Shown one piece after another: positions 1-62,255 of a stretch of 64,000 bases of DNA. The notes below the pieces were generated by a model. The model was not told the DNA's origin. It made no database searches and worked only from the letters and a program-made list of their open reading frames with translations. The stretch lies in contig JBFWLW010000004.1 in assembly GCA_050251945.1 (NCBI GenBank), forward strand, positions 203,821-267,820. Direction: 5' to 3'. Both the position numbers and the translations under genes were made by a program. Every line of letters begins with the position of its first letter. Positions within the stretch are counted from its first letter, which is position 1. The DNA comes from Deferribacterales bacterium (GTDB taxonomy: Bacteria > Chrysiogenota > Deferribacteres > Deferribacterales > Geovibrionaceae).

Positions 1-563
1 TTTGAATGTACCGCAACGTTCAGCTTATCCGCATCGCTCTCAAGCCATCTCGGGATATGCTCGCATATGATCTCAAGGCTTTTGTATCCGCCCCTCATCA
101 GGAAGGGCAGAAGTATTTCCCTTGAGTTCAGTTTCGTATAGGTCTTAAGTGTTTCCACAAGATTTATGTGGTATTTTCCGGCGCACTCGCTGCCTTGCAG
201 TACGGGTTCCGGAGCCACAGCCATGGACTCCAGCAGCTCTCTTTCCTCTTCCGAGGCGATGTAGCCGAGAACGTCGTAAACGTTTCCTTCGGAGCGCCAC
301 GTTTTTATGCCGACGCTTTCAAGTATGGCGTTCATAACGCCTGTCATGTCCTCTGCGATGAGGACGGAACAGCCGCCGAACATCCCGACGGTATCTTTAA
401 GTATGGACTGGAGCTGTTCAAGGTCTTCCGCCTCGTTCACATCCATAGAGAGGTCTGCAACCTCTGTCCATTCTTCCTCAATCTGATCATAGAGCCTGAC
501 GCTCCCTTTCTGTTTCAACCCTGTAATGATGTTTTCGGGGTCAACGTATGCCGCAAGACGCAT
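1..563 (-). CDS. anfO: Fe-only nitrogenase accessory protein AnfO (3' end runs off the window)
   Basis: Not in the ORF track. Manual translation from ATG at 563 (RBS GAGGTG) gives MRLAAYVDPENIITGLKQKGSVRLYD...EIICEHIPRWLE, open to the window edge. The N-terminus and C-x-HxPRW motif resemble AnfO, and it lies downstream of anfK. Confidence 0.8.
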   Translation of the reverse strand, partial: MRLAAYVDPENIITGLKQKGSVRLYDQIEEEWTEVADLSMDVNEAEDLEQLQSILKDTVGMFGGCSVLIAEDMTGVMNAILESVGIKTWRSEGNVYDVLGYIASEEERELLESMAVAPEPVLQGSECAGKYHINLVETLKTYTKLNSREILLPFLMRGGYKSLEIICEHIPRWLESDADKLNVAVHS

Positions 564-576
564 GTGTCACCTCGCA

Positions 577-1035
577 TTAAACGCCGTGTTTCTTACCCTT
601 AATGGATTCTATGTCGATGCGTATCACCGCTGTGCCTTTAAGGCTGTTCAGAGGGTACTCGAACTTTTTGTCGGTGAAGAGCGCAACTATCATATCCAGC
701 GCTTTTATTTTTTCCGCCTCGTCCTCAACGAAAACTGCGTTTCCAAGACCGATGACGGTTCTGTGTTTTGCTTCAAAATCGCACGCCTTGTCGCTTTCGA
801 TCACTCCATTGTCAATTGAAACGCTGAAGCAGACGAGGCTGTTCTTTTTCATTATTTCTATCTTCGTTCCTGCCATGGCAGAGTGGAAATATATTGCTGC
901 GCCGTCGTAGGCATAGAAAACAGGAACGGTGAACGGGACGTTGTTGTCCGCAAGGGCAAGGTTCATCACCTGTCCTTTCTTAAGTATCCCGGCTATCTCC
1001 GCCATGTCGGTTATCTCGCGCTGTTTTCTTCTCAT
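577..1035 (-). CDS. Pyridoxamine-5'-phosphate-oxidase-like (NimA/Anf3-like) flavin-binding split-barrel protein
   Basis: MRRKQREI start, IYFHSAMAGTKIE and VCFSV...ACDFEAKHRTVIGLG match the NimA/PNPOx-like family pattern. Start chosen at the second Met. Confidence 0.8.
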   Translation of the reverse strand: MRRKQREITDMAEIAGILKKGQVMNLALADNNVPFTVPVFYAYDGAAIYFHSAMAGTKIEIMKKNSLVCFSVSIDNGVIESDKACDFEAKHRTVIGLGNAVFVEDEAEKIKALDMIVALFTDKKFEYPLNSLKGTAVIRIDIESIKGKKHGV

Positions 1036-1124
1036 AGGTCCGTGGTTGGGGTGCATAACAATTCCTCCGATAATAATTTAAAAGAGCGGCATCCGGTGGT
1101 AAAAGGGATGCCGCAAAGCAAACC

Positions 1125-2516
1125 TTACCACATGGCGAGAATCCACTCTCTGTCTTTTTTATACTCCATGTCGGTGAAAAGTACATTAGCCATCTCTTCC
1201 GCAAGCCAGACAGCGCCGTTGTAACCCACTTTTGGGTGGCGGTAGTAACCTGCTCTGTCGTACACGGGGAAGCCCACTCTTACCATGGGAATATTGTTGT
1301 CCACCGGTATGTAGCGTCCTTTGGAGTGACCGAGGATGAGGTCAATCTCAAGCCCTCTGTTTTTTATTCTGTCTTCAAGTTCCCAGAGGTCGGCATTAGT
1401 TATGACCTCCATGTCAAACTCCGCGTGTTCTTTGATAGCGAGCAGACGCGGGTCTTTGGCATAGTTGGGGTTCTCGTCGCCTATCAGCAGAAGAACGGGT
1501 TTCATGAAGAGGTCGAGGCAGAACTCCGCAAGACCGATGGCAAGATCCGGATGTCCGTATATTGCAACCTTTTTGTCTGCGAAGAACATGTGTGCGAGAT
1601 CCTGAAGCGCGTCGATAGCTTTTCCGCGTTCACGCACCAGCGATTCGGGTATGGGTTTTCCGGTGAGTTTTGAAACGTTCTTAAGGAACGTGTCCGTGTT
1701 TCTGATGCCGATAGGCGTCGGACCTATTATCGTGGGTATCTCAAACTTGTCGCGGAGGTATTCCGCGGCTTTTCCGCCTTCGTATTTGTTCAGCGCGATT
1801 GTGCCGATGGCGTTTGCGGTACCCTGCATATCTTCAATTGTCGTGTTGCCGTGGGAGACAGCGCTCTTGTCGGGCATAAGGGGAGAGTCGAAATTCTCTA
1901 TCTCGAAAAGGACGGTGGCATCCACATCCATCATTTTAAGCAGGTGTTTCAGTTCCTTAACGTCGCCCGGATCGACCCAGCCGGTGATAAGGTTCAGCTT
2001 GCCGTTGCACTCGTCAGTTTTAGCCGCGAAGTGTTTAATAAAGGCTGTGACCGCAGCGTCGTAGCCGGACGTCTGGGAACCTTTGAAACTGGGCGTATGC
2101 ACGGGGATAAGGTGAACTTCCCTGTCGGCATATTTAGTCGCCAGAATAGTCTTTTTAAGTTTTCGCACAACACCCTCAACGTCGTCACCGATGATCTCTG
2201 TTGAACAGGTGGTGATGATGGGTACGACTTTGACGTGGGGGTAGCGCTCGAGAAGAACGTCAACCGCTCCCTCGATACGGTGTACCGCGCCGAGCACCGC
2301 CGCATCTTCGTGAAGTGAAGAGGATGCGATGTCAAAGTTTTCGTTAAGATGCTGTGAGAACAGCAGACGGACAAACATAACACAGCCCTGTCCGCCGTGA
2401 ACTATTGCTGTGCAATCCTCAATGCCTATGCTGGCGTATTGTGCGCCTGCCGGCTGGCAGGTCACCATAGGGTTGATTATACCTACCCTTTCTTTGCTTT
2501 TTATTTCACATGACAT
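1125..2516 (-). CDS. anfK: Fe-only nitrogenase beta subunit
   Basis: P-cluster Cys motifs TCQPAG, GQGCVMFVRL and IITTCSTEIIGDD; C-terminus EWILAMW; 463 aa. Confidence 0.95.
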   Translation of the reverse strand: MSCEIKSKERVGIINPMVTCQPAGAQYASIGIEDCTAIVHGGQGCVMFVRLLFSQHLNENFDIASSSLHEDAAVLGAVHRIEGAVDVLLERYPHVKVVPIITTCSTEIIGDDVEGVVRKLKKTILATKYADREVHLIPVHTPSFKGSQTSGYDAAVTAFIKHFAAKTDECNGKLNLITGWVDPGDVKELKHLLKMMDVDATVLFEIENFDSPLMPDKSAVSHGNTTIEDMQGTANAIGTIALNKYEGGKAAEYLRDKFEIPTIIGPTPIGIRNTDTFLKNVSKLTGKPIPESLVRERGKAIDALQDLAHMFFADKKVAIYGHPDLAIGLAEFCLDLFMKPVLLLIGDENPNYAKDPRLLAIKEHAEFDMEVITNADLWELEDRIKNRGLEIDLILGHSKGRYIPVDNNIPMVRVGFPVYDRAGYYRHPKVGYNGAVWLAEEMANVLFTDMEYKKDREWILAMW

Positions 2517-2538
2517 AATTAGCTCCTATTAGCTGAAA

Positions 2539-2606
2539 AGATCGCTTCGTCACCTTGTTCCTCGCGAAGACGTCTCTGCGAGGAAGTGAAACTGACGAAG
2601 CAGTCT
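2539..2606. repeat. REP-like inverted doublet, copy 1 (anfG-anfK intergenic)
   Basis: AGATCGCTTCGTCACCTTGTTCCTCGCGAAGAC joined directly to GTCTCTGCGAGGAAG...CTGACGAAGCAGTCT; same unit pair as six other loci. Confidence 0.85.
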
Positions 2607-2613
2607 GATCTTA

Positions 2614-2958
2614 TTAATACAGTTTCACCGTGAGTTCTTCGTTGAGCGAGCCGTGGATAGTAACGTAGTCAATACGCTCTTTCAGCCCGTCCATCATAAC
2701 GGCGATGTCCTCTTTGCCCATTTCGTTCACCCACGGAAACTTGGTCTTAAAACCGTCCGCAAGGAACTTGGCGTCCACCCAGTAGCATTTCAGTTCGGGT
2801 GTGCTGAGATCCGGCTGTTCGCCCAGAAGCATCGTTTTTGTTATCCCGAGTATGCCGTTGTTCTGGTTTTCCCTGTCCCATGCTCTTGAGTGGAACTGCC
2901 AGAGGCACCTTTGCATGATATAGTTTTCAAGAATTGCGATTCTTTCTTTCATTTCCAT
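2614..2958 (-). CDS. anfG: Fe-only nitrogenase delta subunit
   Basis: YIMQRCLWQFHSRAWDRENQN and CYWVDA motifs; ends SLNEELTVKLY; ATG at 2958 with RBS GAGGAG; lies between D and K. Confidence 0.95.
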   Translation of the reverse strand: MEMKERIAILENYIMQRCLWQFHSRAWDRENQNNGILGITKTMLLGEQPDLSTPELKCYWVDAKFLADGFKTKFPWVNEMGKEDIAVMMDGLKERIDYVTIHGSLNEELTVKLY

Positions 2959-2968
2959 GTTGTTCTCC

Positions 2969-5401
<2,433 letters not shown>

Positions 5402-5699: not shown

Positions 5700-5812
5700 A
5701 GACTGCTTCACCCTTATGGGGTTCGCAGAGACTTGACCTTTGCCCCGTCTTCGCGAGGAGCGGAGCGACGCGGCGATCTCTTTTTAAACCTCCCTTTAGT
5801 TAAAGGAGGGGG
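5700..5812. repeat. REP-like doublet, copy 2 (reverse orientation), plus an extra hairpin CCTCCCTTTAGTTAAAGGAGG
   Basis: AGACTGCTTC...TTCGCAGAGAC (5700-5732) and CGTCTTCGCGAGGAGCGGAGCGACGCGGCGATCTC (5746-5780); hairpin at 5789-5812. Confidence 0.85.
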
Positions 5813-32627: not shown

Positions 32628-34682
32628 ATGAAGCCTAGGAATTTATTCAGACGCGGAAGTTTTATACTCTCCGTGTCTATGGCGCTCGGTTCGCTTACGG
32701 CGGCACATGCCGAGGAAACCGTTGAGATCAAGCCCGTCGTCGTTACGGCGACAGGATACGAACAGTATATCGCGGATGCTCCGGCAAGCATCAGCGTGAT
32801 AACGAAAGAGGACATCGCAAAGGAACCCGCTGCGAGCGTCACGGACCTGCTTAAAAAAGTTGAGGGCGTGAGCATCACAGGTTCTTCGCCAAATGATACC
32901 GATATCGTTATCAGAGGTATGCCGGGCGAGTATACGCTGATTCTGGTGGACGGTAAACGCCAGAACACCAGAGAGACAATGAACAGAGGCACAGGCGGAG
33001 TTCAGGCGAATATGATACCGCCTCTGGAGGCAATTGAGCGCATTGAGATTGTAAGAGGTCCCATGTCTGCCGTGTATGGTTCCGAAGCAATGGGCGGTGT
33101 TATCAACATAATAACCAAAAAGGTTCCCGACGAATGGCACGGCTCGCTCACTCTTGGAACAATACAGCCCAAGGATGGCGATATCGGAACTACGTTCAAC
33201 AGACAGTTCTGGATAGGCGGTCCCATCGTTAAAGACAAGGTCGGTTTCCAGCTTTACGGTCAGATGAACGACCGCAATGAGGATGATGTTTATTATCCCG
33301 GCTCTTCCACAAGCGGAAGCAACGGAAAAGAGGATGAGAACATCACTGCAAAATTCACCGTCACGCCCGACAAAAATAACGAGATAAACGTTGAGGGCGG
33401 ATACGATACGCTCACATACACCAGAACAGGCGGAAAATCCCTCGCCGACACAGCTTCCGACACCAAAACGGAACACACCAGAAAACACTGGTCTGTCAGC
33501 CACGATGGAAAATACGGCAGCGCTTCAACAAGCATCGCTCTTTTTCAGGAGATAGCTGATAAGGAGGACTGGACAAACGGCGTTAAAAGCTCAACGAAAC
33601 CGGAGCTGACAAATACGACACTTGATGCCGGACTCTCTTATATGTTCTCAAAACATTCTCTGCGCACAGGCGGTCAGATAGCGAAAGCGGAGATAGAAGG
33701 CATCGGAAGTCAGGATTCCATTTCTGGATATCCGGCGAATACTGACGATGTTTCCGTGGATTCTTACGCACTTTATCTGGAAGACGAATATTTCCTGACT
33801 GATAAATTTGCCATAACAGCCGGAGTCCGTATGGACGACGACGAGAGATACGGTTCAAACTGGACGCCCAGACTTTACGGCGTATATAAGCTGACCGACA
33901 GATGGACTCTCAGAGGCGGCGTTGCGATGGGCTTCAAGGCTCCTACGATACGTCAGACCACCGAAGGTTATTGCATGACCACAGGCGGAGGAGCACAGGT
34001 AGCGGGAACGCTTTGCGGTAACCCCGACCTTGACCCTGAAACAAGCACAACCGAAGAGATGGGTATCAGATATGATGCCCCGGGCGGAATGACTTTCGGG
34101 TTCACTGTTTATAACAACGACATAAAAGACAAAGTATCAAGTTATGCCACGGATGCTGTGGATTCGCTGAACAGATATATCTATGAATACGAAAACATAG
34201 ACGACGTGAATCTGAGAGGCGTTGAGGTTTCTTTCGATATGCCTTTCACAAAAACGCTGGATTTCAAAGCCAACTATACCTACACCGACTCAGAACGTAG
34301 CGGCGGCGAACCCGCATACGACGGAAGCTCCCTTGACGGAAAACCTCTGGACAAAACGCCGGAACACATGTTCAACGCACAGCTTGACTGGCAGGCGGCT
34401 AAACCCCTTCTGCTTTACACAAGGGCAAATGTTGTGAGCAAACAATACTGGTCGGCATTCAGAAACGGCGCTATGCGCTCGAGAGTGCGCCCCGGAACGG
34501 AAACTTTTGACATCGGCGGTGTTTACGACGTGAACAAAGCGCTCTCGTTCAAACTTGCGGTGCTTAACATCTTTGATAAAAAGGTTTCAGTCGATAACCG
34601 TTCGCGCACAGGCGGACTGGACGGCAACTGGATGGTTGACGAAGGTCTGACGGTTGCAGCGGATATGACGCTCAGATTCTGA
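32628..34682 (+). CDS. TonB-dependent receptor, CirA/IrgA/CfrA-like
   Basis: VVVTATGYEQ, APASISVI, IRGMPGEYTLILVDGKRQ and RGPMSAVYGSEAMGGVINIITK motifs; ends LRF. Confidence 0.92.
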   Translation: MKPRNLFRRGSFILSVSMALGSLTAAHAEETVEIKPVVVTATGYEQYIADAPASISVITKEDIAKEPAASVTDLLKKVEGVSITGSSPNDTDIVIRGMPGEYTLILVDGKRQNTRETMNRGTGGVQANMIPPLEAIERIEIVRGPMSAVYGSEAMGGVINIITKKVPDEWHGSLTLGTIQPKDGDIGTTFNRQFWIGGPIVKDKVGFQLYGQMNDRNEDDVYYPGSSTSGSNGKEDENITAKFTVTPDKNNEINVEGGYDTLTYTRTGGKSLADTASDTKTEHTRKHWSVSHDGKYGSASTSIALFQEIADKEDWTNGVKSSTKPELTNTTLDAGLSYMFSKHSLRTGGQIAKAEIEGIGSQDSISGYPANTDDVSVDSYALYLEDEYFLTDKFAITAGVRMDDDERYGSNWTPRLYGVYKLTDRWTLRGGVAMGFKAPTIRQTTEGYCMTTGGGAQVAGTLCGNPDLDPETSTTEEMGIRYDAPGGMTFGFTVYNNDIKDKVSSYATDAVDSLNRYIYEYENIDDVNLRGVEVSFDMPFTKTLDFKANYTYTDSERSGGEPAYDGSSLDGKPLDKTPEHMFNAQLDWQAAKPLLLYTRANVVSKQYWSAFRNGAMRSRVRPGTETFDIGGVYDVNKALSFKLAVLNIFDKKVSVDNRSRTGGLDGNWMVDEGLTVAADMTLRF

Positions 34683-34691
34683 TGATATAAT

Positions 34692-34770
34692 GAGATCGCC
34701 GCGTCGCTGCGCTCCTCGCGAAGACATATACGTCTCTGCGAGGAAGAAGTCATGCTGACGCGGCAATCTC
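34692..34770. repeat. REP-like doublet, copy 3
   Basis: GAGATCGCCGCGTCGCTGCGCTCCTCGCGAAGAC...GTCTCTGCGAGG...GACGCGGCAATCTC; the two ends pair into a long stem. Confidence 0.9.
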
Positions 34771-49085: not shown

Positions 49086-49168
49086 GAGATTGCTTCGTCA
49101 GTCTGTCGGCTTCCTCGCAATGACTCTATCTGATGTCTTCGCGAGGAGCTGAGCGACGCGGCGATCTC
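49086..49168. repeat. REP-like doublet, copy 4
   Basis: GAGATTGCTTCGTCAG...CTCGCAATGAC and GTCTTCGCGAGGAGCTGAGCGACGCGGCGATCTC. Confidence 0.9.
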
Positions 49169-49223: not shown

Positions 49224-49435
49224 GTCTGAAAACAGTGTCGAAAATTATACATCGGCACGTTCCCCTATGCAGAATAGTCGGCATGGCAACATGCTGAATC
49301 ACCCCTTCGCCATCTCTTTGCTCATCTGCTAAAGTTCTTATATTTAAATCTTTTCGTGCTTCCGGTGCCGTTTTGGAACTACTTGGCATGTTTAATGTTA
49401 ATGTTCAGGAAGAATTAATTTCAGGAGGCGATCTT

Positions 49436-49828
49436 ATGAGAAAGATCATCATGACACTGTCCCTTATCATTTGCGTTGCGGCACTCGCTTTTGCGGCTCC
49501 CCTCAGCATCACCAAGAAAACAGGCAACTACACTGTTGTTTCCGTTTTCGACAAAAATTCTGCGACAACGGGTAAAAACAAGGTGAACATCACCATCAAG
49601 GACGGCGGCAAGGTCGTTGACGGTGCAAAGGTTGCAGTTTATTACTCCATGCCCGCCATGGCAGGTATGCCCGCAATGGAATACAAAGTGATAGCAGACG
49701 GCAAAGGCGGTTTTTATTCCGCAGTGCTTGATCTGGGCATGTCAGGTCCCTGGAACGTGGATGTCAAGTTCGTTCTGCCCGGTTCAAAAGCAGTACAGCA
49801 GGCATCTTATTCAATCGACGCCAGATAA
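49436..49828 (+). CDS. YtkA/FixH-like periplasmic Met-rich protein
   Basis: Signal peptide AFA, YSMPAMAGMPAM and LGMSGPWNV motifs. Confidence 0.8.
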   Translation: MRKIIMTLSLIICVAALAFAAPLSITKKTGNYTVVSVFDKNSATTGKNKVNITIKDGGKVVDGAKVAVYYSMPAMAGMPAMEYKVIADGKGGFYSAVLDLGMSGPWNVDVKFVLPGSKAVQQASYSIDAR

Positions 49829-49879
49829 TCATGCATAGAGGGGAGGGGGATCTCTCCCCTTCTTTTGCGGAGGAAAAAC

Positions 49880-51241
49880 GTGAAGATACAACTTTTTAAC
49901 ATAACAGATTTAACAGATGAGATCGCCGCGTCGCTCTGCTCCTCGCGAAGACGCATAGCCGTCTCTGCGAGCCGGAGGCGAAGCAGTCTGGCTTCTGCTT
50001 TATTATTAGCGGCATTAATTTTAACGGCAGGTGCGGCGAATGCCGAAACGGTGGACGTTGACGCTCTCACCGAAACAGCCGTTTCAAAAAACATAAAACT
50101 GGAATCCATGAAATATGACGTGCGTGCGTCAGAGAGTGCAGAAATCTATTCGGGAAGTCTTACCGACCCTATGGTGAGCCTCGGCTTAGTTAACGAAGGA
50201 ACAAATTATACTGTCGGTCAGGCGGGCATGTCCCGTTATACGGTGATGGTGAGCCAGATGTTTCCGTTCTTCGGAAAACTGGACACAAAACAGACAGAGG
50301 CGAAATACAAAACTCAGGCTCTGCGCGAAAGCGTACGGGCTGAGAAGCTGGAAGTTATCCACGCCGTCAGGTCTCTGTATCTCGACCTTTACACTATTCA
50401 GGAATCGAAAAAACTGCTGAACACAAAGATGAGGCTGATACAGATGACGGAAAGCTCCGCGCAGGCGAAATACAGTTCCGGCATGATGGATTCTAAAGAT
50501 GTCATTATGGTTCAGCGTGAGAAATATATGGTGATGGAAGCCCTTGAGATGATGAACGGGAAAGAGCGTATGCTTAAGACCTCTCTTGCACACATCACCG
50601 GAAAGGATTCTGACGATTTCGGCGAGTTTTCGCTTCTGCCCGAAAAGGATACTGAGCTTGATGTCCAGACGCTTTATAAGATGGCAGTGGAAAGTTCCGT
50701 CACCCTTAAAAGCATGGAGAACGAGGTCAATGCAATGGCGGCGAACGTGAAGATGAAGGAGCTTGAAAAGTATCCCGATTTCACCGTCACACTCGGCTAT
50801 GAACCACGCCCCGGCTACGCCATGTCCGACGTATATTCGGCGAGCATCGGGTTCAATATACCGCTCTATTACAGCACCCGTCAGCTTCCCGCCATAAACG
50901 AGGCGAAGGCTCGGAAGCTGAAAGCGGACACTGTTTACTACAATATGCGCCACGAGCTTAGAAGCATGCTCACGGAGCTTGTTGCCGCGGCAGATTCTTC
51001 AAAACATATAATGGATATATATCAGTCGGGCATATCCGCCAAAGCTGACCAGTCAAGAGACGCCGCCCTTGCCGCGTATAAACAGGGCAGAGGCAACGCA
51101 TCGGACGTTATAGCGGCGGTTGACACGTCTGTTGAATACAAAATGAAATATCTCGAAAAATATTCCGAGAGACAAAAGAGCCTCAGCAGGCTCAACGTAC
51201 TTACTGGAGGAAAGCTCTATGGAACGGTCATCCATGATTAA
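49880..51241 (+). CDS. TolC-family outer-membrane factor (CusC-like)
   Basis: GTG start after a GGAGG RBS; OEP motifs (SQMFPFFGKL, KYPDFTV, FNIPLY); first efflux gene after ytkA. Confidence 0.88.
   Translation: MKIQLFNITDLTDEIAASLCSSRRRIAVSASRRRSSLASALLLAALILTAGAANAETVDVDALTETAVSKNIKLESMKYDVRASESAEIYSGSLTDPMVSLGLVNEGTNYTVGQAGMSRYTVMVSQMFPFFGKLDTKQTEAKYKTQALRESVRAEKLEVIHAVRSLYLDLYTIQESKKLLNTKMRLIQMTESSAQAKYSSGMMDSKDVIMVQREKYMVMEALEMMNGKERMLKTSLAHITGKDSDDFGEFSLLPEKDTELDVQTLYKMAVESSVTLKSMENEVNAMAANVKMKELEKYPDFTVTLGYEPRPGYAMSDVYSASIGFNIPLYYSTRQLPAINEAKARKLKADTVYYNMRHELRSMLTELVAAADSSKHIMDIYQSGISAKADQSRDAALAAYKQGRGNASDVIAAVDTSVEYKMKYLEKYSERQKSLSRLNVLTGGKLYGTVIHD
49919..49989. repeat. REP-like doublet, copy 5, in frame inside the cusC signal peptide
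   Basis: GAG ATC GCC GCG TCG CTC TGC TCC TCG CGA AGA CGC encodes EIAASLCSSRRR (codons 14-25). Confidence 0.88.
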
Positions 51242-52469
51242 GATATACGCGCTGACGCTCAGATCGAAACTCAATGAGGTCGCCGTGTCGCTCCGCTCCT
51301 CGCGAAGACGCAAATTGATGTCTCTGCGGGGAAGCCGCAGGCTGACGCGGCAGTCTGGTGTTTTTATACAGGTTTCGTCAGTCTGCATGCTTCTGGCACT
51401 GCTTGCGCTGGCTATGCCCGCGTTTGCGGACGAGTTTGACATATTTGACGAACAGAAACTGCTTGAAATAAAGCCTGCCATTCTGCAGAAGATGGGTGTA
51501 CGCCTTACAAAAGTTAAATACGGTGACAGTACAAAATCCATCAAACTGCCCGGTATAGTGAACACAGACGAGACGTCAACATTCACCGTCAATACTAAGT
51601 TCGGCGGCTGGATAGAGAGGCTCTATCTGGATTATACAGGCAAAACAGTGGGCAAGGGCGCGAAGATAGCCGAAATATACAGCCCAGAAATGGTCGCAGC
51701 TCAGGAGGAATATCTTTCTTTCCTGCGCCATGCGAACGGATTTAAAACTCAGCAGGATGCATACGGCGGCGTGTTTGCAGATGATGCGAAACAGCTTGCC
51801 GCCGGAGCGCGCTCAAGGCTTAAATATTGGGATATGAGTGATGCTCAGATACGCGAACTTGAGCGCACGGGCAAAACCCGCCGCACGGTTTCAGTCTACA
51901 GCCCGTCAAACGGCTACGTTCTGGCGAAGAACGTTTCCGCAGGGATGATGGTTCAGTCCGGAATGGCTCTTTTCACTCTGGCATCCACCGACAGAATGTG
52001 GGTTATTGCCGACGTATATGAAGAGGATATGAAATTCATCCGTCAGGGAGCAACAGCAAAATTTACACTGGCAAATCAGCCTGACGTCACTTTTGACATA
52101 AAGGCGGATTACATATATCCCGAAATGTCCCCCAACACAAGAACGCTCAAGGTGCGCTTTCCCGTGCTGAACCGCGGCAGTAAACTTAAACCTGCGATGT
52201 ACGGCGATATAATCCTTAAAGTTAAATCAGGGAAGATACTTAAGGTTGAGGAGGACGCCGTCATTGACGACGGAAAGCGTAAGATAGTTTTCCTCTCAAA
52301 AGGCGGAGGTAAGTTTGAGCCGCGAGAGATCGTTACCGGAGCGAAGAGCGACGGTTATTACGAGATACGCCGCGGGCTTAAAGCTAACGACGTTGTTGCC
52401 AGAGGTGCAAATTTCCTTCTGGATTCCGAGGCGCAGCTTAAAGGTATCAACCCTGTCAAGGTGCAGTAA
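51219..52469 (+). CDS. cusB: CusB/CzcB-family periplasmic adaptor
   Basis: KFGGWIERLY, IYSPEMVAAQEEYL, WVIADVYEED, YIYPEMSPNTRT and LKPAMY motifs. Start at 51219 or 51234. Confidence 0.88.
   Translation: MERSSMIKIYALTLRSKLNEVAVSLRSSRRRKLMSLRGSRRLTRQSGVFIQVSSVCMLLALLALAMPAFADEFDIFDEQKLLEIKPAILQKMGVRLTKVKYGDSTKSIKLPGIVNTDETSTFTVNTKFGGWIERLYLDYTGKTVGKGAKIAEIYSPEMVAAQEEYLSFLRHANGFKTQQDAYGGVFADDAKQLAAGARSRLKYWDMSDAQIRELERTGKTRRTVSVYSPSNGYVLAKNVSAGMMVQSGMALFTLASTDRMWVIADVYEEDMKFIRQGATAKFTLANQPDVTFDIKADYIYPEMSPNTRTLKVRFPVLNRGSKLKPAMYGDIILKVKSGKILKVEEDAVIDDGKRKIVFLSKGGGKFEPREIVTGAKSDGYYEIRRGLKANDVVARGANFLLDSEAQLKGINPVKVQ
51276..51356. repeat. REP-like doublet, copy 6, in frame inside the cusB N-terminus
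   Basis: GAG GTC GCC GTG TCG CTC CGC TCC TCG CGA AGA CGC encodes EVAVSLRSSRRR; a further remnant GTTTCGTCAGTCTG lies near 51372. Confidence 0.85.
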
Positions 52470-55400
52470 TGATAGAGAAACTTATCGGTTTTTCCGCCAG
52501 AAACAAGTTTCTGGTGATACTGTTCATTCTGGCGGCAGTGGGCGCAGGGCTGTGGTCTGCCAAAAAGACCCCTCTGGATGCGATACCCGACCTGAGCGAC
52601 GTTCAGGTCATAGTTTTCACCGAATGGACGGGACGCTCTCCAGACCTTATTGAAGACCAGATAACCTATCCCATCGTAAGCAGCCTGCTCGCCGCTCCGA
52701 AGGTCAAAGTTGTCAGAGGATACTCGTTCTTCGGGTTCTCCTACGTTTATGCCATATTCGACGATGGAACTGACATCTACTGGGCGCGCAGCCGTGTGCT
52801 TGAGAACATCAGCAAGATAAGCGGGAAGCTGCCGCCTAACGTCAGTCCTGCTCTGGGACCAGACGCAACGGGTGTCGGCTGGGTGTACCAGTACGCACTG
52901 GTGGACAAATCCGGCAAGCACAACCTCAGCGAACTGCGGTCATATCAGGACTGGTATCTGAAATACGCACTGGAAGAGGTTAAAGGCGTTGCGGAGGTTG
53001 CATCCGTCGGCGGACACGTAAAAGAGTATCAGATAAACATAGATCCGGACAAACTGCGCGGATACGGCATAAGCCTGAACCAGCTTGTTAAAGCGGTGCG
53101 CGACAGCAACCGCGACACGGGCGGACGCTCGGTTGAGCTTTCCGGACGCGACTTCATGGTCAAAGGTATCGGATATATCAAAAATCTGGACGATATCCGC
53201 AATATAGTTATAAAAAACGACGGAATGGGCGTTCCGGTGCTTGTCGGCGACGTAGCGTCAGTTGAGACGGGACCCACCATGCGAAGAGGCATAGCCGACT
53301 TTAACGGTGACGGCGAAACCGTCGGCGGCGTTGTGGTTATGCGCTACGGAGAAAACGCACTTAACGTAATTAACAATGTTAAAGCTAAAATAGAGACCCT
53401 GAAATCGTCGCTTCCTGACGGTGTTAAGATAGTGCCGGTTTACGACCGCTCAACCCTCATCGTTGATTCCATAAAGACACTGCGCGACAAGCTCATTGAG
53501 GAGATAATCATTGTCAGCCTTGTGTGCATAGTGTTTCTGTTCCATTTCCGTTCGGCGCTGGTGGCGATACTCACACTTCCTGTGGCAATCCTGATGTCGT
53601 TCATCATGTTCCGCTGGCTGGGCATCACATCAAACATCATGTCGCTTGGCGGTATAGCCATAGCCATCGGCGCTATGGTGGATGCGGCAATCGTTATGGT
53701 TGAGAATGCCCACAAACAGCTTGAGCATAACCCCGACGCGGACAGGGTGGAAGTTATTATCGCCGCCGCGCAGAAGGTGGGCAAGCCGCTCTTCTTCTCG
53801 CTTCTGATAATAACCGTGTCGTTCCTTCCCGTTTTCGCTCTGGAGGCGCAGGAAGGCAGGCTGTTCAAACCACTTGCATATACAAAGACCTTTTCAATGC
53901 TGTTTGCGTCCATCCTTTCGGTGACGCTGGTTCCGGCACTGATGGTCATTTTCATAAAAGGGAAGATACGCCACGAGCAGGACAACCCCATAACAAAGGC
54001 GCTGGTGTTCCTGTATAATCCGTTCGTGCAGTTCGCACTGAAATACAGGTTCGTCGTAATGGCGCTGGCGGTGGTATCTCTTGCCGCGACCTATCCCATA
54101 GTCAAAAAGTTAGGTTCGGAGTTTATGCCCGTGCTGAACGAAGGCACCATATTCTATATGCCCACCACTCTGCCGGGTATCTCCGCATCCGAGGCGGCTA
54201 AGAGCCTGCAGGCGCAGAACGGGTTGATAAAGAGCGTTCCAGAGGTTGACACCGTTTTCGGTAAAGCTGGCAACGCCACCACTGCCACAGATCCCGCGGG
54301 TCTCTCAATGGCTGAGACGGTCATAACCCTGAAACCCCGCGACCAGTGGCGCAAGGGCATGACGTTTGAAAAGCTCGTTGATGAGATGAACGAAAAGGTG
54401 AAAGTCGCCGGATGGGTGAACTCGTGGACCATGCCCATTAAGGCGCGTATAGACATGCTTTCAACAGGTATCAAAACACCTGTAGGTATAAAAGTGTTCG
54501 GTCCCGACCCTGCGAAGCTTCAGGAGATAGGACAGCAGCTTGAAACGTCGCTCATGAAGGTTGACGGCACCAGAAGCGTCTATTCCGAGCGTGCAGACGG
54601 CGGATATTATCTGTATATCGAGCCTGACATGTTCAAAATGTCCAGATATGGCATAACCGTTGAGGATGTGAACATGGTTATTGAATCCGCTATCGGCGGT
54701 ATGCCCGTTACGAAAACCGTAGAGGGCAGGGAGCGTTATCCCGTTGCAGTGCGCTATAAAAAGGCGTTCAGAAATGACGTTGAGTCCATAAAGAACGTCC
54801 TTGTTCCCGTGGGCGGCATGGGCGGACAGGCTAACTATATACCGCTCGGTGACATAGCGAACGTCTATCTGAAATCCGGTCCCGATATGCTGAAAGAGGA
54901 GAACGGAATGCTGGTTTCCTATGTGTACGTCGATCTGCAGCAGGGGCTTGACGTGGGCAGCTATGTGAAACGAGCCATCACGGAAGTAGACAGCACTATA
55001 AAGCTTCCGCAGGGCTACACCCTCAAATGGAGCGGTGAATACGAGTCAATGCAGAGGGTTAAGGAGAAGCTGAAACTCGCCGTTCCGCTCACGCTGGGAC
55101 TGATATTCATGCTTCTGTATCTCAACTTCCGCTCGGTGACAAAAACGGCGATAGTTATGCTTTCTGTGCCTTTTGCACTGGTGGGCGGATTCCTCTATCT
55201 GTATTTTCTTGGCTATAACATGTCCGTTGCGGTCTGGGTGGGACTGATAGCCCTTGCGGGGGTGTCAGCCGAGACGGGTGTAGTTATGATAGTTTATCTG
55301 GACGAGGCGTTTGACGAATGGAAGGCGCGCGGACAGATGAATAATGACGAAGACCTCAAGGCGGCTGTGGTTTATGGCGCTGTGCAGAGGGTTCGCCCGA

Positions 55401-55597
55401 AAATAATGACCGTCGCCACTCTCATCATCGGTCTGGTGCCTATCATGTGGGCTACCGGAAGCGGTGCGGACGTTATGAAACGCATCGCGGCACCTATGAT
55501 CGGCGGTATGGTGACGTCAACCATACTGACACTCATAATAATACCTGCTCTATATTTCTCATGGAAAAAGTGGGAAATTAAAAAGCAAACAGTATAA
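52469..55597 (+). CDS. cusA: CusA-type Cu(I)/Ag(I) heavy-metal RND pump
   Basis: [13 protein letters not shown]; Met triad in [15 protein letters not shown] and IDMLSTG; [13 protein letters not shown]. Confidence 0.93.
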
Positions 55598-62079: not shown

Positions 62080-62255
62080 AGCACGCTGATGCGTGCTCAA
62101 ACTGATGACAAAGTCAGGAAAATGTGAGATCGCGTCGTTGCGTGCGCTCCTCGCGAAGACAAAAAAAGTCTCTGCGAGGGTTTTAACCCTAAGCAGTCTA
62201 ATGCGGGTCTGTGTAAATTTAGTTTGTCAACAACCTGAGCACGCTGATGCGTGCT
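62080..62255. mobile_element. 140-bp MITE-like insertion (62098-62237) with imperfect TIRs and an 18-bp direct repeat
   Basis: AGCACGCTGATGCGTGCT occurs at 62080-62097 and 62238-62255. Element ends CAAACTGATGACAAAGT and (reverse complement) CAGGTTGTTGACAAACT match at 12/17 positions. Confidence 0.65.
62126..62199. repeat. REP-like doublet, copy 7 (inside the MITE)
   Basis: GAGATCGCGTCG...CTCCTCGCGAAGAC then GTCTCTGCGAGGG...AAGCAGTCT. Confidence 0.85.

Follow-up and report, generated by a model that had tools for sequence, protein, structure and literature searches.

Palindromic repeats lying in frame within functional genes are an established phenomenon, known from the Rickettsia palindromic elements (RPEs) and from intragenic dimers of repetitive extragenic palindromes (REPs) (PMC3733652, PMC10969869). 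Intragenic REP dimers encode 20–30 amino acids, and many are located at the N-termini of open reading frames (ORFs) (Di Nocera et al. 2013, PMC3733652), although, as the same study cautions, many of these N-terminal ‘intragenic’ REPs may be misannotations (Di Nocera et al., PMC3733652). A further case is described here from a 64,000-nt stretch of a Deferribacterales genome (GenBank assembly GCA_050251945.1, contig JBFWLW010000004.1, positions 203,821 to 267,820; referred to below as the window), in which two copies of a palindromic repeat lie at the 5’ ends of cusC and cusB, consecutive genes of a heavy-metal efflux operon. These copies have probably been fixed in signal-peptide coding DNA, where they would be translated from the ancestral start codons and removed on export. 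A preliminary description of this DNA had likened them to RPEs and intragenic REPs, which are indeed the closest known kind (PMC3733652, PMC10969869). The closest protein matches of the window lie in or beside Seleniivibrio (Deferribacterota), and its sequence is seen again in landfill metagenomes.

Palindromic inserts in the cusC and cusB leaders

cusC (49880–51241, + strand) encodes a TolC-family outer-membrane factor of 453 amino acids from a GTG start, and cusB (51219–52469, +) encodes a CusB/CzcB-family periplasmic adaptor of 416 amino acids, the ATG of which overlaps the cusC stop by 23 nt. Both ORFs contain a repeat copy in the same orientation, as had been reported before. In cusC, a block of 105 nt (35 codons; 49892–49996, +) follows codon 4 (MKIQ) and is absent from the empty alleles of relatives; it contains a palindromic core of 71 nt (49919–49989, +; nhmmer E 1e-16; predicted RNA fold −31.1 kcal/mol) consisting of arm 1 (49919–49952, EIAASLCSSRRR), a loop (49953–49960) and arm 2 (49961–49990). 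The corresponding block in cusB, also absent from the empty alleles, is 129 nt long (43 codons; 51249–51377, +) and follows codon 10; its core of 81 nt (51276–51356, +; nhmmer E 4e-19; predicted RNA fold −40.9 kcal/mol, z −2.1) is made up of arm 1 (51276–51309, EVAVSLRSSRRR), a loop (51310–51319) and arm 2 (51320–51357). The limits of both blocks come from alignments with three empty loci (L001, L004 and L245) and are good to a few nucleotides.

The repeat had been presented as a REP doublet translated in the same frame in both genes. The repeat itself is real, but each copy is better regarded as one imperfect palindrome with two arms of ~30–38 nt. The shared frame holds for arm 1 (EIAASLCSSRRR and EVAVSLRSSRRR), but arm 2 falls into a different frame in each gene (VSASRRRSSL versus SLRGSRRLTRQS), owing to loop lengths of 8 and 10 nt. 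About 4/6 frames of the element are open, so that ~1/5 of insertions into coding DNA would keep the frame and in-frame survival is not improbable; the rare part is tolerance by the protein rather than frame-keeping.

The state of the two sites was compared across eleven orthologous loci from seven lineages, the window and most of the loci being metagenome assemblies. A search with CusC returned orthologs in two length classes. Both inserts are present and in frame in four assemblies of three lineages (the window, L002/L003 and L007), and neither is present in four lineages (L245/L246, S. woodruffii L001, L004/L005 and the outgroup L006), which include the closest relative of the window (L245/L246, 95% CusB identity). 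The leaders of the empty alleles are ordinary, ~19–26 amino acids long. Empty cusC reads ATG/GTG-AAG-ATA-CAA and then directly the hydrophobic core, MKIQAYLLTIFILMAGVAQA↓ET (arrows mark cleavage sites), and the empty cusB leader reads MERTSGIKIYALTLFALFALALSAFA↓DEF. In filled alleles the first 4 (cusC) or 10 (cusB) codons are unchanged, and the 105 or 129 extra nucleotides separate them from the core and cleavage site. The long leader is the derived state, since more distant homologs have short leaders throughout.

Probable translation through the repeats

The GTG at 49880 was proposed to be the cusC start and proves correct: it aligns with the ATG of orthologs and is preceded by a Shine-Dalgarno sequence, GGAGGA (49869–49874, +; duplex with the 16S tail −9.5 kcal/mol), found at the same site in empty alleles. 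The cusB Shine-Dalgarno sequence, also GGAGGA, lies within the 3’ end of cusC (51206–51211, +; −9.3 kcal/mol) and is conserved in filled and empty alleles alike. Alignment with relatives lacking the insert, a check proposed beforehand, thus finds identical start codons and Shine-Dalgarno sites in the empty alleles, and the duplexes at the ancestral starts (−9.3 to −10.8 kcal/mol) are conserved in all alleles. Within the stretch from the repeat to the cleavage site, in-frame starts form duplexes of −3.7 kcal/mol or weaker and have no positional conservation, and the cusC of the window has no ATG, GTG or TTG there. Since empty relatives share the starts and Shine-Dalgarno sites, downstream starts are weak and the window cusC has none, translation through the repeat is strongly supported by these alignments for cusC and likely for cusB. 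The repeats were therefore rightly read as part of the signal peptides, as they lie downstream of the true starts and upstream of the hydrophobic cores.

The resulting leaders have the expected lengths, that of CusC measuring 55 amino acids up to its ANA↓E site and that of CusB 70 up to AFA↓D. The inserted residues are hydrophilic and Arg/Ser-rich and directly precede normal hydrophobic cores and A-x-A sites; in CusC the core and cleavage region are encoded at 49990–50044 (+), as placed by translation and ortholog alignment. Sec signal peptides have a positive n-region, a hydrophobic core of ~10–20 residues and a small-x-small cleavage motif, whereas Tat signals carry a twin-arginine motif, S/T-R-R-x-F-L-K, before a weakly hydrophobic core; TolC-type proteins are expected to use Sec. 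Both leaders have the features of Sec-type (SPase I) signals, CusC with ...SRRRSSL-ASALLLAALILTAGA-ANA↓E and CusB with ...RQSGVFIQVSSVC-MLLALLALAMP-AFA↓D, and the hydrophobic cores and cleavage motifs of the filled leaders align with those of the empty alleles. The suggestion that the inserts are loosely Tat-like is not supported: neither leader matches an NCBIfam or Pfam Tat-signal model at E<=10, and the motif S/T-R-R-x-F-L-K is absent, SRRRSSL and SRRLTRQ being without F-L-K. Other leader models in NCBIfam and Pfam, including that of the extended signal peptide region (ESPR), likewise gave no match to either leader at E<=10. The two are best described as predicted Sec leaders with repeat-derived n-region extensions.

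Taken together, two copies of a high-copy, non-coding REP- or MITE-like repeat (MITE, miniature inverted-repeat transposable element) would have been fixed in cusC and cusB between the first codons and the hydrophobic core. The length of each insert, including its non-core flanks, is a multiple of three (105 and 129 nt), and the frame used is open. Translation from the ancestral start would run through the repeat and lengthen the leaders from 20 to 55 amino acids in CusC and from 26 to 70 in CusB. The additional Arg/Ser-rich residues would suit the positive n-region typical of Sec/SPase-I leaders and would be removed on export, leaving the mature proteins unchanged. This would explain how the inserts persist in genes under purifying selection. 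The long leaders are presumably made and cleaved, with a near-neutral effect on the pump, and it is plausible that signal-peptide leaders are permissive landing sites for such repeats, as had been suggested.

Several observations weigh against this account. Every filled lineage has some in-frame cusB ATG after the repeat (51387 in the window; MRFSS/MQFSS in L002 and L007), and such downstream starts, which could give a short leader, were chosen by gene callers in two assemblies. The cleavage sites were read by eye and from ortholog alignment. Near-neutrality also fits poorly with the 93% conservation of the arms (see below) and with the perfect co-occurrence of the two inserts.

The downstream ATGs are at the same time an argument that the repeats are 5’-untranslated or intercistronic elements which are never translated because translation starts downstream of them. 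In another assembly the CusB of the window is called from the ATG at 51387 (P0030, 360 amino acids), and the cusB of L007 (L007:1860) is called from a downstream ATG to give 361 amino acids; the warning on misannotated N-terminal REPs (PMC3733652) points in the same direction. The ATG at 51387–51389 (+) had been singled out as a possible alternative start in the preliminary description; it has a weak Shine-Dalgarno duplex (−3.7 kcal/mol) and its codon is ACA in L002. For cusB the upstream start is graded no higher than likely. Against untranslated repeats stand the lack of positional conservation among the weak downstream candidates, the ancestral start and Shine-Dalgarno site kept in every allele, and a frame that stays open through neutrally decayed DNA. 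For the cusC of the window, moreover, there is no start between the repeat and the cleavage site, and a leaderless outer-membrane factor could not be exported. A purely untranslated role is thus quite unlikely. Gene callers also err in the opposite allele class, the empty cusC of L004 (L004:6001) being called 13 codons too short.

Two allele classes

Both sites are filled or both are empty in all seven lineages, and these states are at odds with the gene tree, in which the sister pairs window/L245 and L002/L001 each join a filled lineage (the window, L002) to an empty one (L245, L001). L001 and L002 are 93–99% identical in nucleotide sequence over most of the region and ~73–76% identical only over the two sites, and in the cusC site L001 resembles L004 more closely (91%). 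Orthologous non-core flanks are common to the filled alleles, and ~21 nt (GCATAT.T...) missing from these are common to the empty ones; this rules out repeated independent insertion as well as repeated precise excision. The pattern instead points to two old allele classes that may have been moved by short-tract recombination, which fits better than insertion or excision. Several Seleniivibrio populations of the comparison co-occur in one assembly, and other metagenomes contain contigs with additional alleles of both the empty and the filled class.

As the window and most loci are metagenomic and read depth rises sharply on the multi-copy arms, the filled structure could in principle be an assembly artefact at repeat sites, or the filled genes could be decaying pseudogenes. 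In a landfill run (X1), summed contig depth goes from ~180 to 3,500–5,200 over the arms (49892–49955 and 51300–51363), and this 20–30-fold rise indicates that the arms are highly multi-copy in the landfill community. The filled structure is nevertheless identical, with identical junctions, in independent JGI, ENA and Logan assemblies of different studies. Among the Logan contigs, one spans the cusC copy with both of its junctions (X1 record 1, 49700–50764) and two span the cusB copy with both of its junctions (X1 record 4, 50735–51600; X2 record 13, 50477–51409), each with 0 differences. The ORFs are full-length, and non-synonymous divergence among the three filled lineages is low. Artefact and decay are both highly improbable.

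Arm conservation and a possible regulatory role

Between the window and L002, the arms are identical at 127/136 positions (93%), whereas the loops are identical at 8/18 and the left non-core insert DNA at 27/54. Four-fold sites of the three genes are 0.55–0.58 identical, near saturation, against amino-acid identities of 0.82, 0.87 and 0.95, a difference that places the filled genes under purifying selection. Non-core insert DNA (~50%) and loops have decayed to neutral levels, yet without a stop or frameshift. Inside the arms, 23/29 four-fold sites are identical (p ~0.01), so the constraint acts on the nucleotides and not on the peptide.

Such conservation would be expected if the inserts were adaptive regulatory modules whose hairpins act on mRNA or DNA, the pair being co-selected; a translation-coupled conditional terminator or a stability element could then set the CusC:CusB:CusA output. 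Consistent with this, the cusB leader contains a terminator-like feature (51338–51367, +), identified by consensus scan and alignment, in which the distal arm-2 hairpin precedes GTGTTTTTAT (T-run T7 in L002 and L007), and the right flank of this feature is 83% conserved. The agreement of both sites in seven lineages against the gene tree, with divergence between sister lineages peaking only at the two sites, also favours a role for the pair. However, the lineages sampled are few and not independent of one another, and with the sites 1.35 kb apart linkage alone could give the co-occurrence. The empty alleles are evidently functional too, and since the same arm sequence is conserved across unrelated bacteria, its conservation may reflect the element family or gene conversion.

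The preliminary description had envisaged a strong mRNA hairpin just after each start codon; the cusC fold is no better than shuffles (−31.1 kcal/mol, z −0.45), and that of cusB is modest (−40.9 kcal/mol, z −2.1). The hairpins begin 39 nt (cusC) and 57 nt (cusB) past the start codons, outside the ribosome initiation footprint, which makes a direct block of initiation unlikely. Nor does folding have a strand preference: strand-specific RNA structure, raised by a conserved G.T apposition in the stem, was rejected as sense and antisense fold energies are equal (5/10 each way). The cusC fold and the lack of strand preference count against a regulatory role, and an adaptive regulatory function is regarded as unlikely.

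A related possibility combines these elements, with filled and empty alleles as two old haplotypes that are kept or exchanged among co-occurring Seleniivibrio species by short-tract recombination, the inserts being co-selected and the leader hairpins acting in cis. Co-selection is put forward as a hypothesis only, given the few non-independent lineages and the 1.35 kb between the sites, and the combined scenario is likewise given a low probability. If true, a terminator overridden only by a closely following ribosome could determine how much of each of the three pump components is made relative to the others, and a repeat-derived regulatory element would be working from within a signal-peptide coding region. 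Translation of the inserts as near-neutral, cleaved extensions is preferred here.

The arm-1 motif GATCGCC[AG]CGTCGCTnnGCTCCTCGCGAAGAC occurs verbatim in more than 120 metagenome contigs from unrelated habitats and many datasets (among them L125–L244), mostly as solitary arms inside other, locally repeated sequence. Because the same arm-1 sequence recurs verbatim in such unrelated contigs, arm conservation may belong to the whole family, through a recognition factor or gene conversion from other copies, rather than to selection at the protein level. None of the ~120 sampled metagenome copies of arm 1 lies convincingly inside a real gene, the candidates being in 5’ untranslated regions or at gene ends. 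The 40-residue cusB insert peptide had no match in a HMMER search of 1.84 billion representative proteins, an insensitive search with one member per cluster, and a protein-level census with a 45-residue query gave no candidate. A 15-mer scan of genome contigs had the Seleniivibrio loci L108 and L115 among the matches listed, which are dominated by chance matches from high-GC genomes.

The repeat family in the window

The core of arm 1, the 23-mer TCGCTCYGCTCCTCGCGAAGACG, has 5 matches in the window at <=3 mismatches against 0.00 expected, and an nhmmer search with a profile of the copies puts their number at exactly seven in the 64 kb, five intergenic and two in genes. Each copy is an imperfect palindrome of 68–82 nt, with GAGATCGCCGCGTCGCTnnGCTCCTCGCGAAGAC, a loop of 0–15 nt and then GTCTCTGCGAGGAAG...GACGCGGCAGTCTC; predicted RNA folds range from −31 to −41 kcal/mol, with z from −0.45 (the cusC copy) to −4.3. 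Rfam 15 gave 0 matches at the gathering score across the window and chance-level matches only at E<=10 around the copies.

The five intergenic copies are packed between genes, beside terminators or just 5’ of ribosome-binding sites. Two were located by the nhmmer profile at 2539–2606 (+) and 5700–5780 (−). The third, at 34692–34769 (+), is the closest paralog of the cusB copy; it follows a TonB-dependent receptor gene and ends 21 nt 5’ of the ATG of the next gene. The fourth (49087–49168, −; nhmmer profile) is located in the mnmA-ytkA spacer and is absent from all orthologous loci, which suggests a faster turnover of intergenic copies than of the two inside genes; its second arm is mixed, GTCATTGCGAGG replacing GTCTCTGCGAGG. 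The fifth, at 62126–62199 (+), lies between convergent genes and is bracketed by 18-nt perfect direct repeats.

Between these direct repeats, AGCACGCTGATGCGTGCT at 62080–62097 and 62238–62255, lie the fifth copy and 28 and 38 nt of non-core DNA, and AGCACGCTGATGCGTGCT itself forms a 7-bp hairpin; the pair may have arisen by duplication of a terminator or represent a long target duplication. A 12-mer, TGACGCTCAGAT, occurs only twice in the window (34666–34677 and 51253–51264; 0.01 expected), each time 11–14 nt upstream of an element copy and in the same orientation. The first occurrence forms the last codons (MTLRF and stop) of the TonB-dependent receptor gene, and the second lies in the cusB leader.

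Gene context

cusC and cusB belong to a conserved ytkA-cusCBA cluster whose synteny is kept across the orthologous loci. The cluster begins with a ytkA-like gene (49373–49828, +; Pfam YtkA PF13115, E 1.2e-15) and continues beyond cusB with cusA (52469–55597, +), which encodes a CusA/CzcA-family heavy-metal RND pump (TIGR00914, 1166 bits). With an outer-membrane factor (PF02321 match and weak TolC match), an adaptor (CusB/CzcB subfamily match) and a pump in one operon, the locus has the make-up of a CusCBA-type heavy-metal RND efflux system. The substrate of the pump is presumably copper or silver, as suggested by the CusB-like best match and the Met-rich YtkA neighbour. The YtkA-like product is periplasmic, contains the Met-rich stretch MPAMAGMPAM and has a weak sub-threshold match to ExtJ, a selenite/tellurite reduction operon protein (E 0.007).

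The spacer between ytkA and cusC carries a terminator-like hairpin with a T-run (49840–49857, +), found by consensus scan and conserved in orthologs. In the outgroup, two half-elements (arm 2, then arm 1; L006:5888–5968) occupy the spacer where other lineages carry this hairpin, and the cusC 5’ end therefore seems to be a repeated target.

Implications

The locus offers a natural experiment, one operon with and without leader extensions of 35 and 43 residues in lineages at 95–99% protein identity, and the matched pairs of filled and empty leaders suit tests of how n-region length and charge affect Sec export. It identifies the n-region of signal peptides as a site at which a selfish palindrome can long persist in frame with the mature protein unchanged. 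It also serves as a warning that automatic gene callers mis-set the starts of such leaders, three inconsistent calls being found here. Lastly, nucleotide-conserved arms in coding DNA, together with a verbatim arm motif in many unrelated metagenomes, suggest a so far undescribed repeat family of wide distribution.

Comparison with known repeat systems

The element resembles RPEs (Ogata et al.; PMC10969869) in that a non-coding palindrome lies in frame in functional genes and adds a peptide at a tolerated place, with insert-free orthologs; the cusC and cusB copies are repeated palindromes in frame in ORFs that are still functional, which is how RPEs are recognised functionally. It differs in host (Deferribacterota versus Rickettsiales), in size (a core of 71–81 nt versus ~100–150) and in location, as the Seleniivibrio insert sits in a cleaved leader and leaves the mature protein unaltered, and 2/7 of the copies in the window are intragenic. 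The RPE families (RPE-1 to RPE-10) are restricted to Rickettsia, and the likeness claimed here is one of mode of working and not of family membership.

REPs are high-copy, mainly intergenic palindromes, often in inverted pairs, and the density and distribution found here (seven copies per 64 kb, five intergenic) agree with this; the inner arm ends of most copies read GACG...CGTC. REP units of the type associated with RAYT genes (IS200/IS605-type tyrosine transposases) measure 20–40 nt, each forming a short stem-loop of its own with a GTAG (or CGTC) tag at one end. The units found here lack GTAG, are ~34 nt long and pair with the partner arm, whereas those of PMC3733652 are stem-loops of 8–9 bp with loops of 4–5 nt and a CCA tail. 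The N-terminal location is here backed by empty-site orthologs and not by annotation alone.

As in bacterial MITEs known to produce in-frame fusions, such as ERIC, BOX and Correia (PMC10969869), the element is small and without coding capacity, is bounded by terminal inverted repeats (GAGATCGC...GCAGTCTC) and varies in presence between close relatives; its termini read GAGATCGCC...GGCAGTCTC, and the core measures 68–82 nt. MITEs also have a target-site duplication of fixed length, for which the candidates here are the 18-nt direct repeat near the 62126 copy, which is not adjacent to the core, and an imperfect 9-nt CTGACGCT(T) at cusB. A long target-site duplication regenerating the hydrophobic core is not supported, the left flanks being not detectably related to the target (shuffle p 0.16–0.8).

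Leaders of 50–70 amino acids with a long charged N-terminal extension before a normal hydrophobic core recall the ESPR of autotransporters and two-partner secretion proteins. The ESPR, though, is a conserved protein motif with a proposed targeting role and is unrelated to the present extension, which derives from a repeat, has no counterpart among the Pfam leader models and can be dispensed with, as the sister lineages show. No precedent of a palindromic repeat inside a signal peptide was found in the literature searched. The in-frame palindromic insert is of a known kind, the RPE/REP type, and the ytkA-cusCBA locus is a clean, well-documented new example of it rather than a new type of system.

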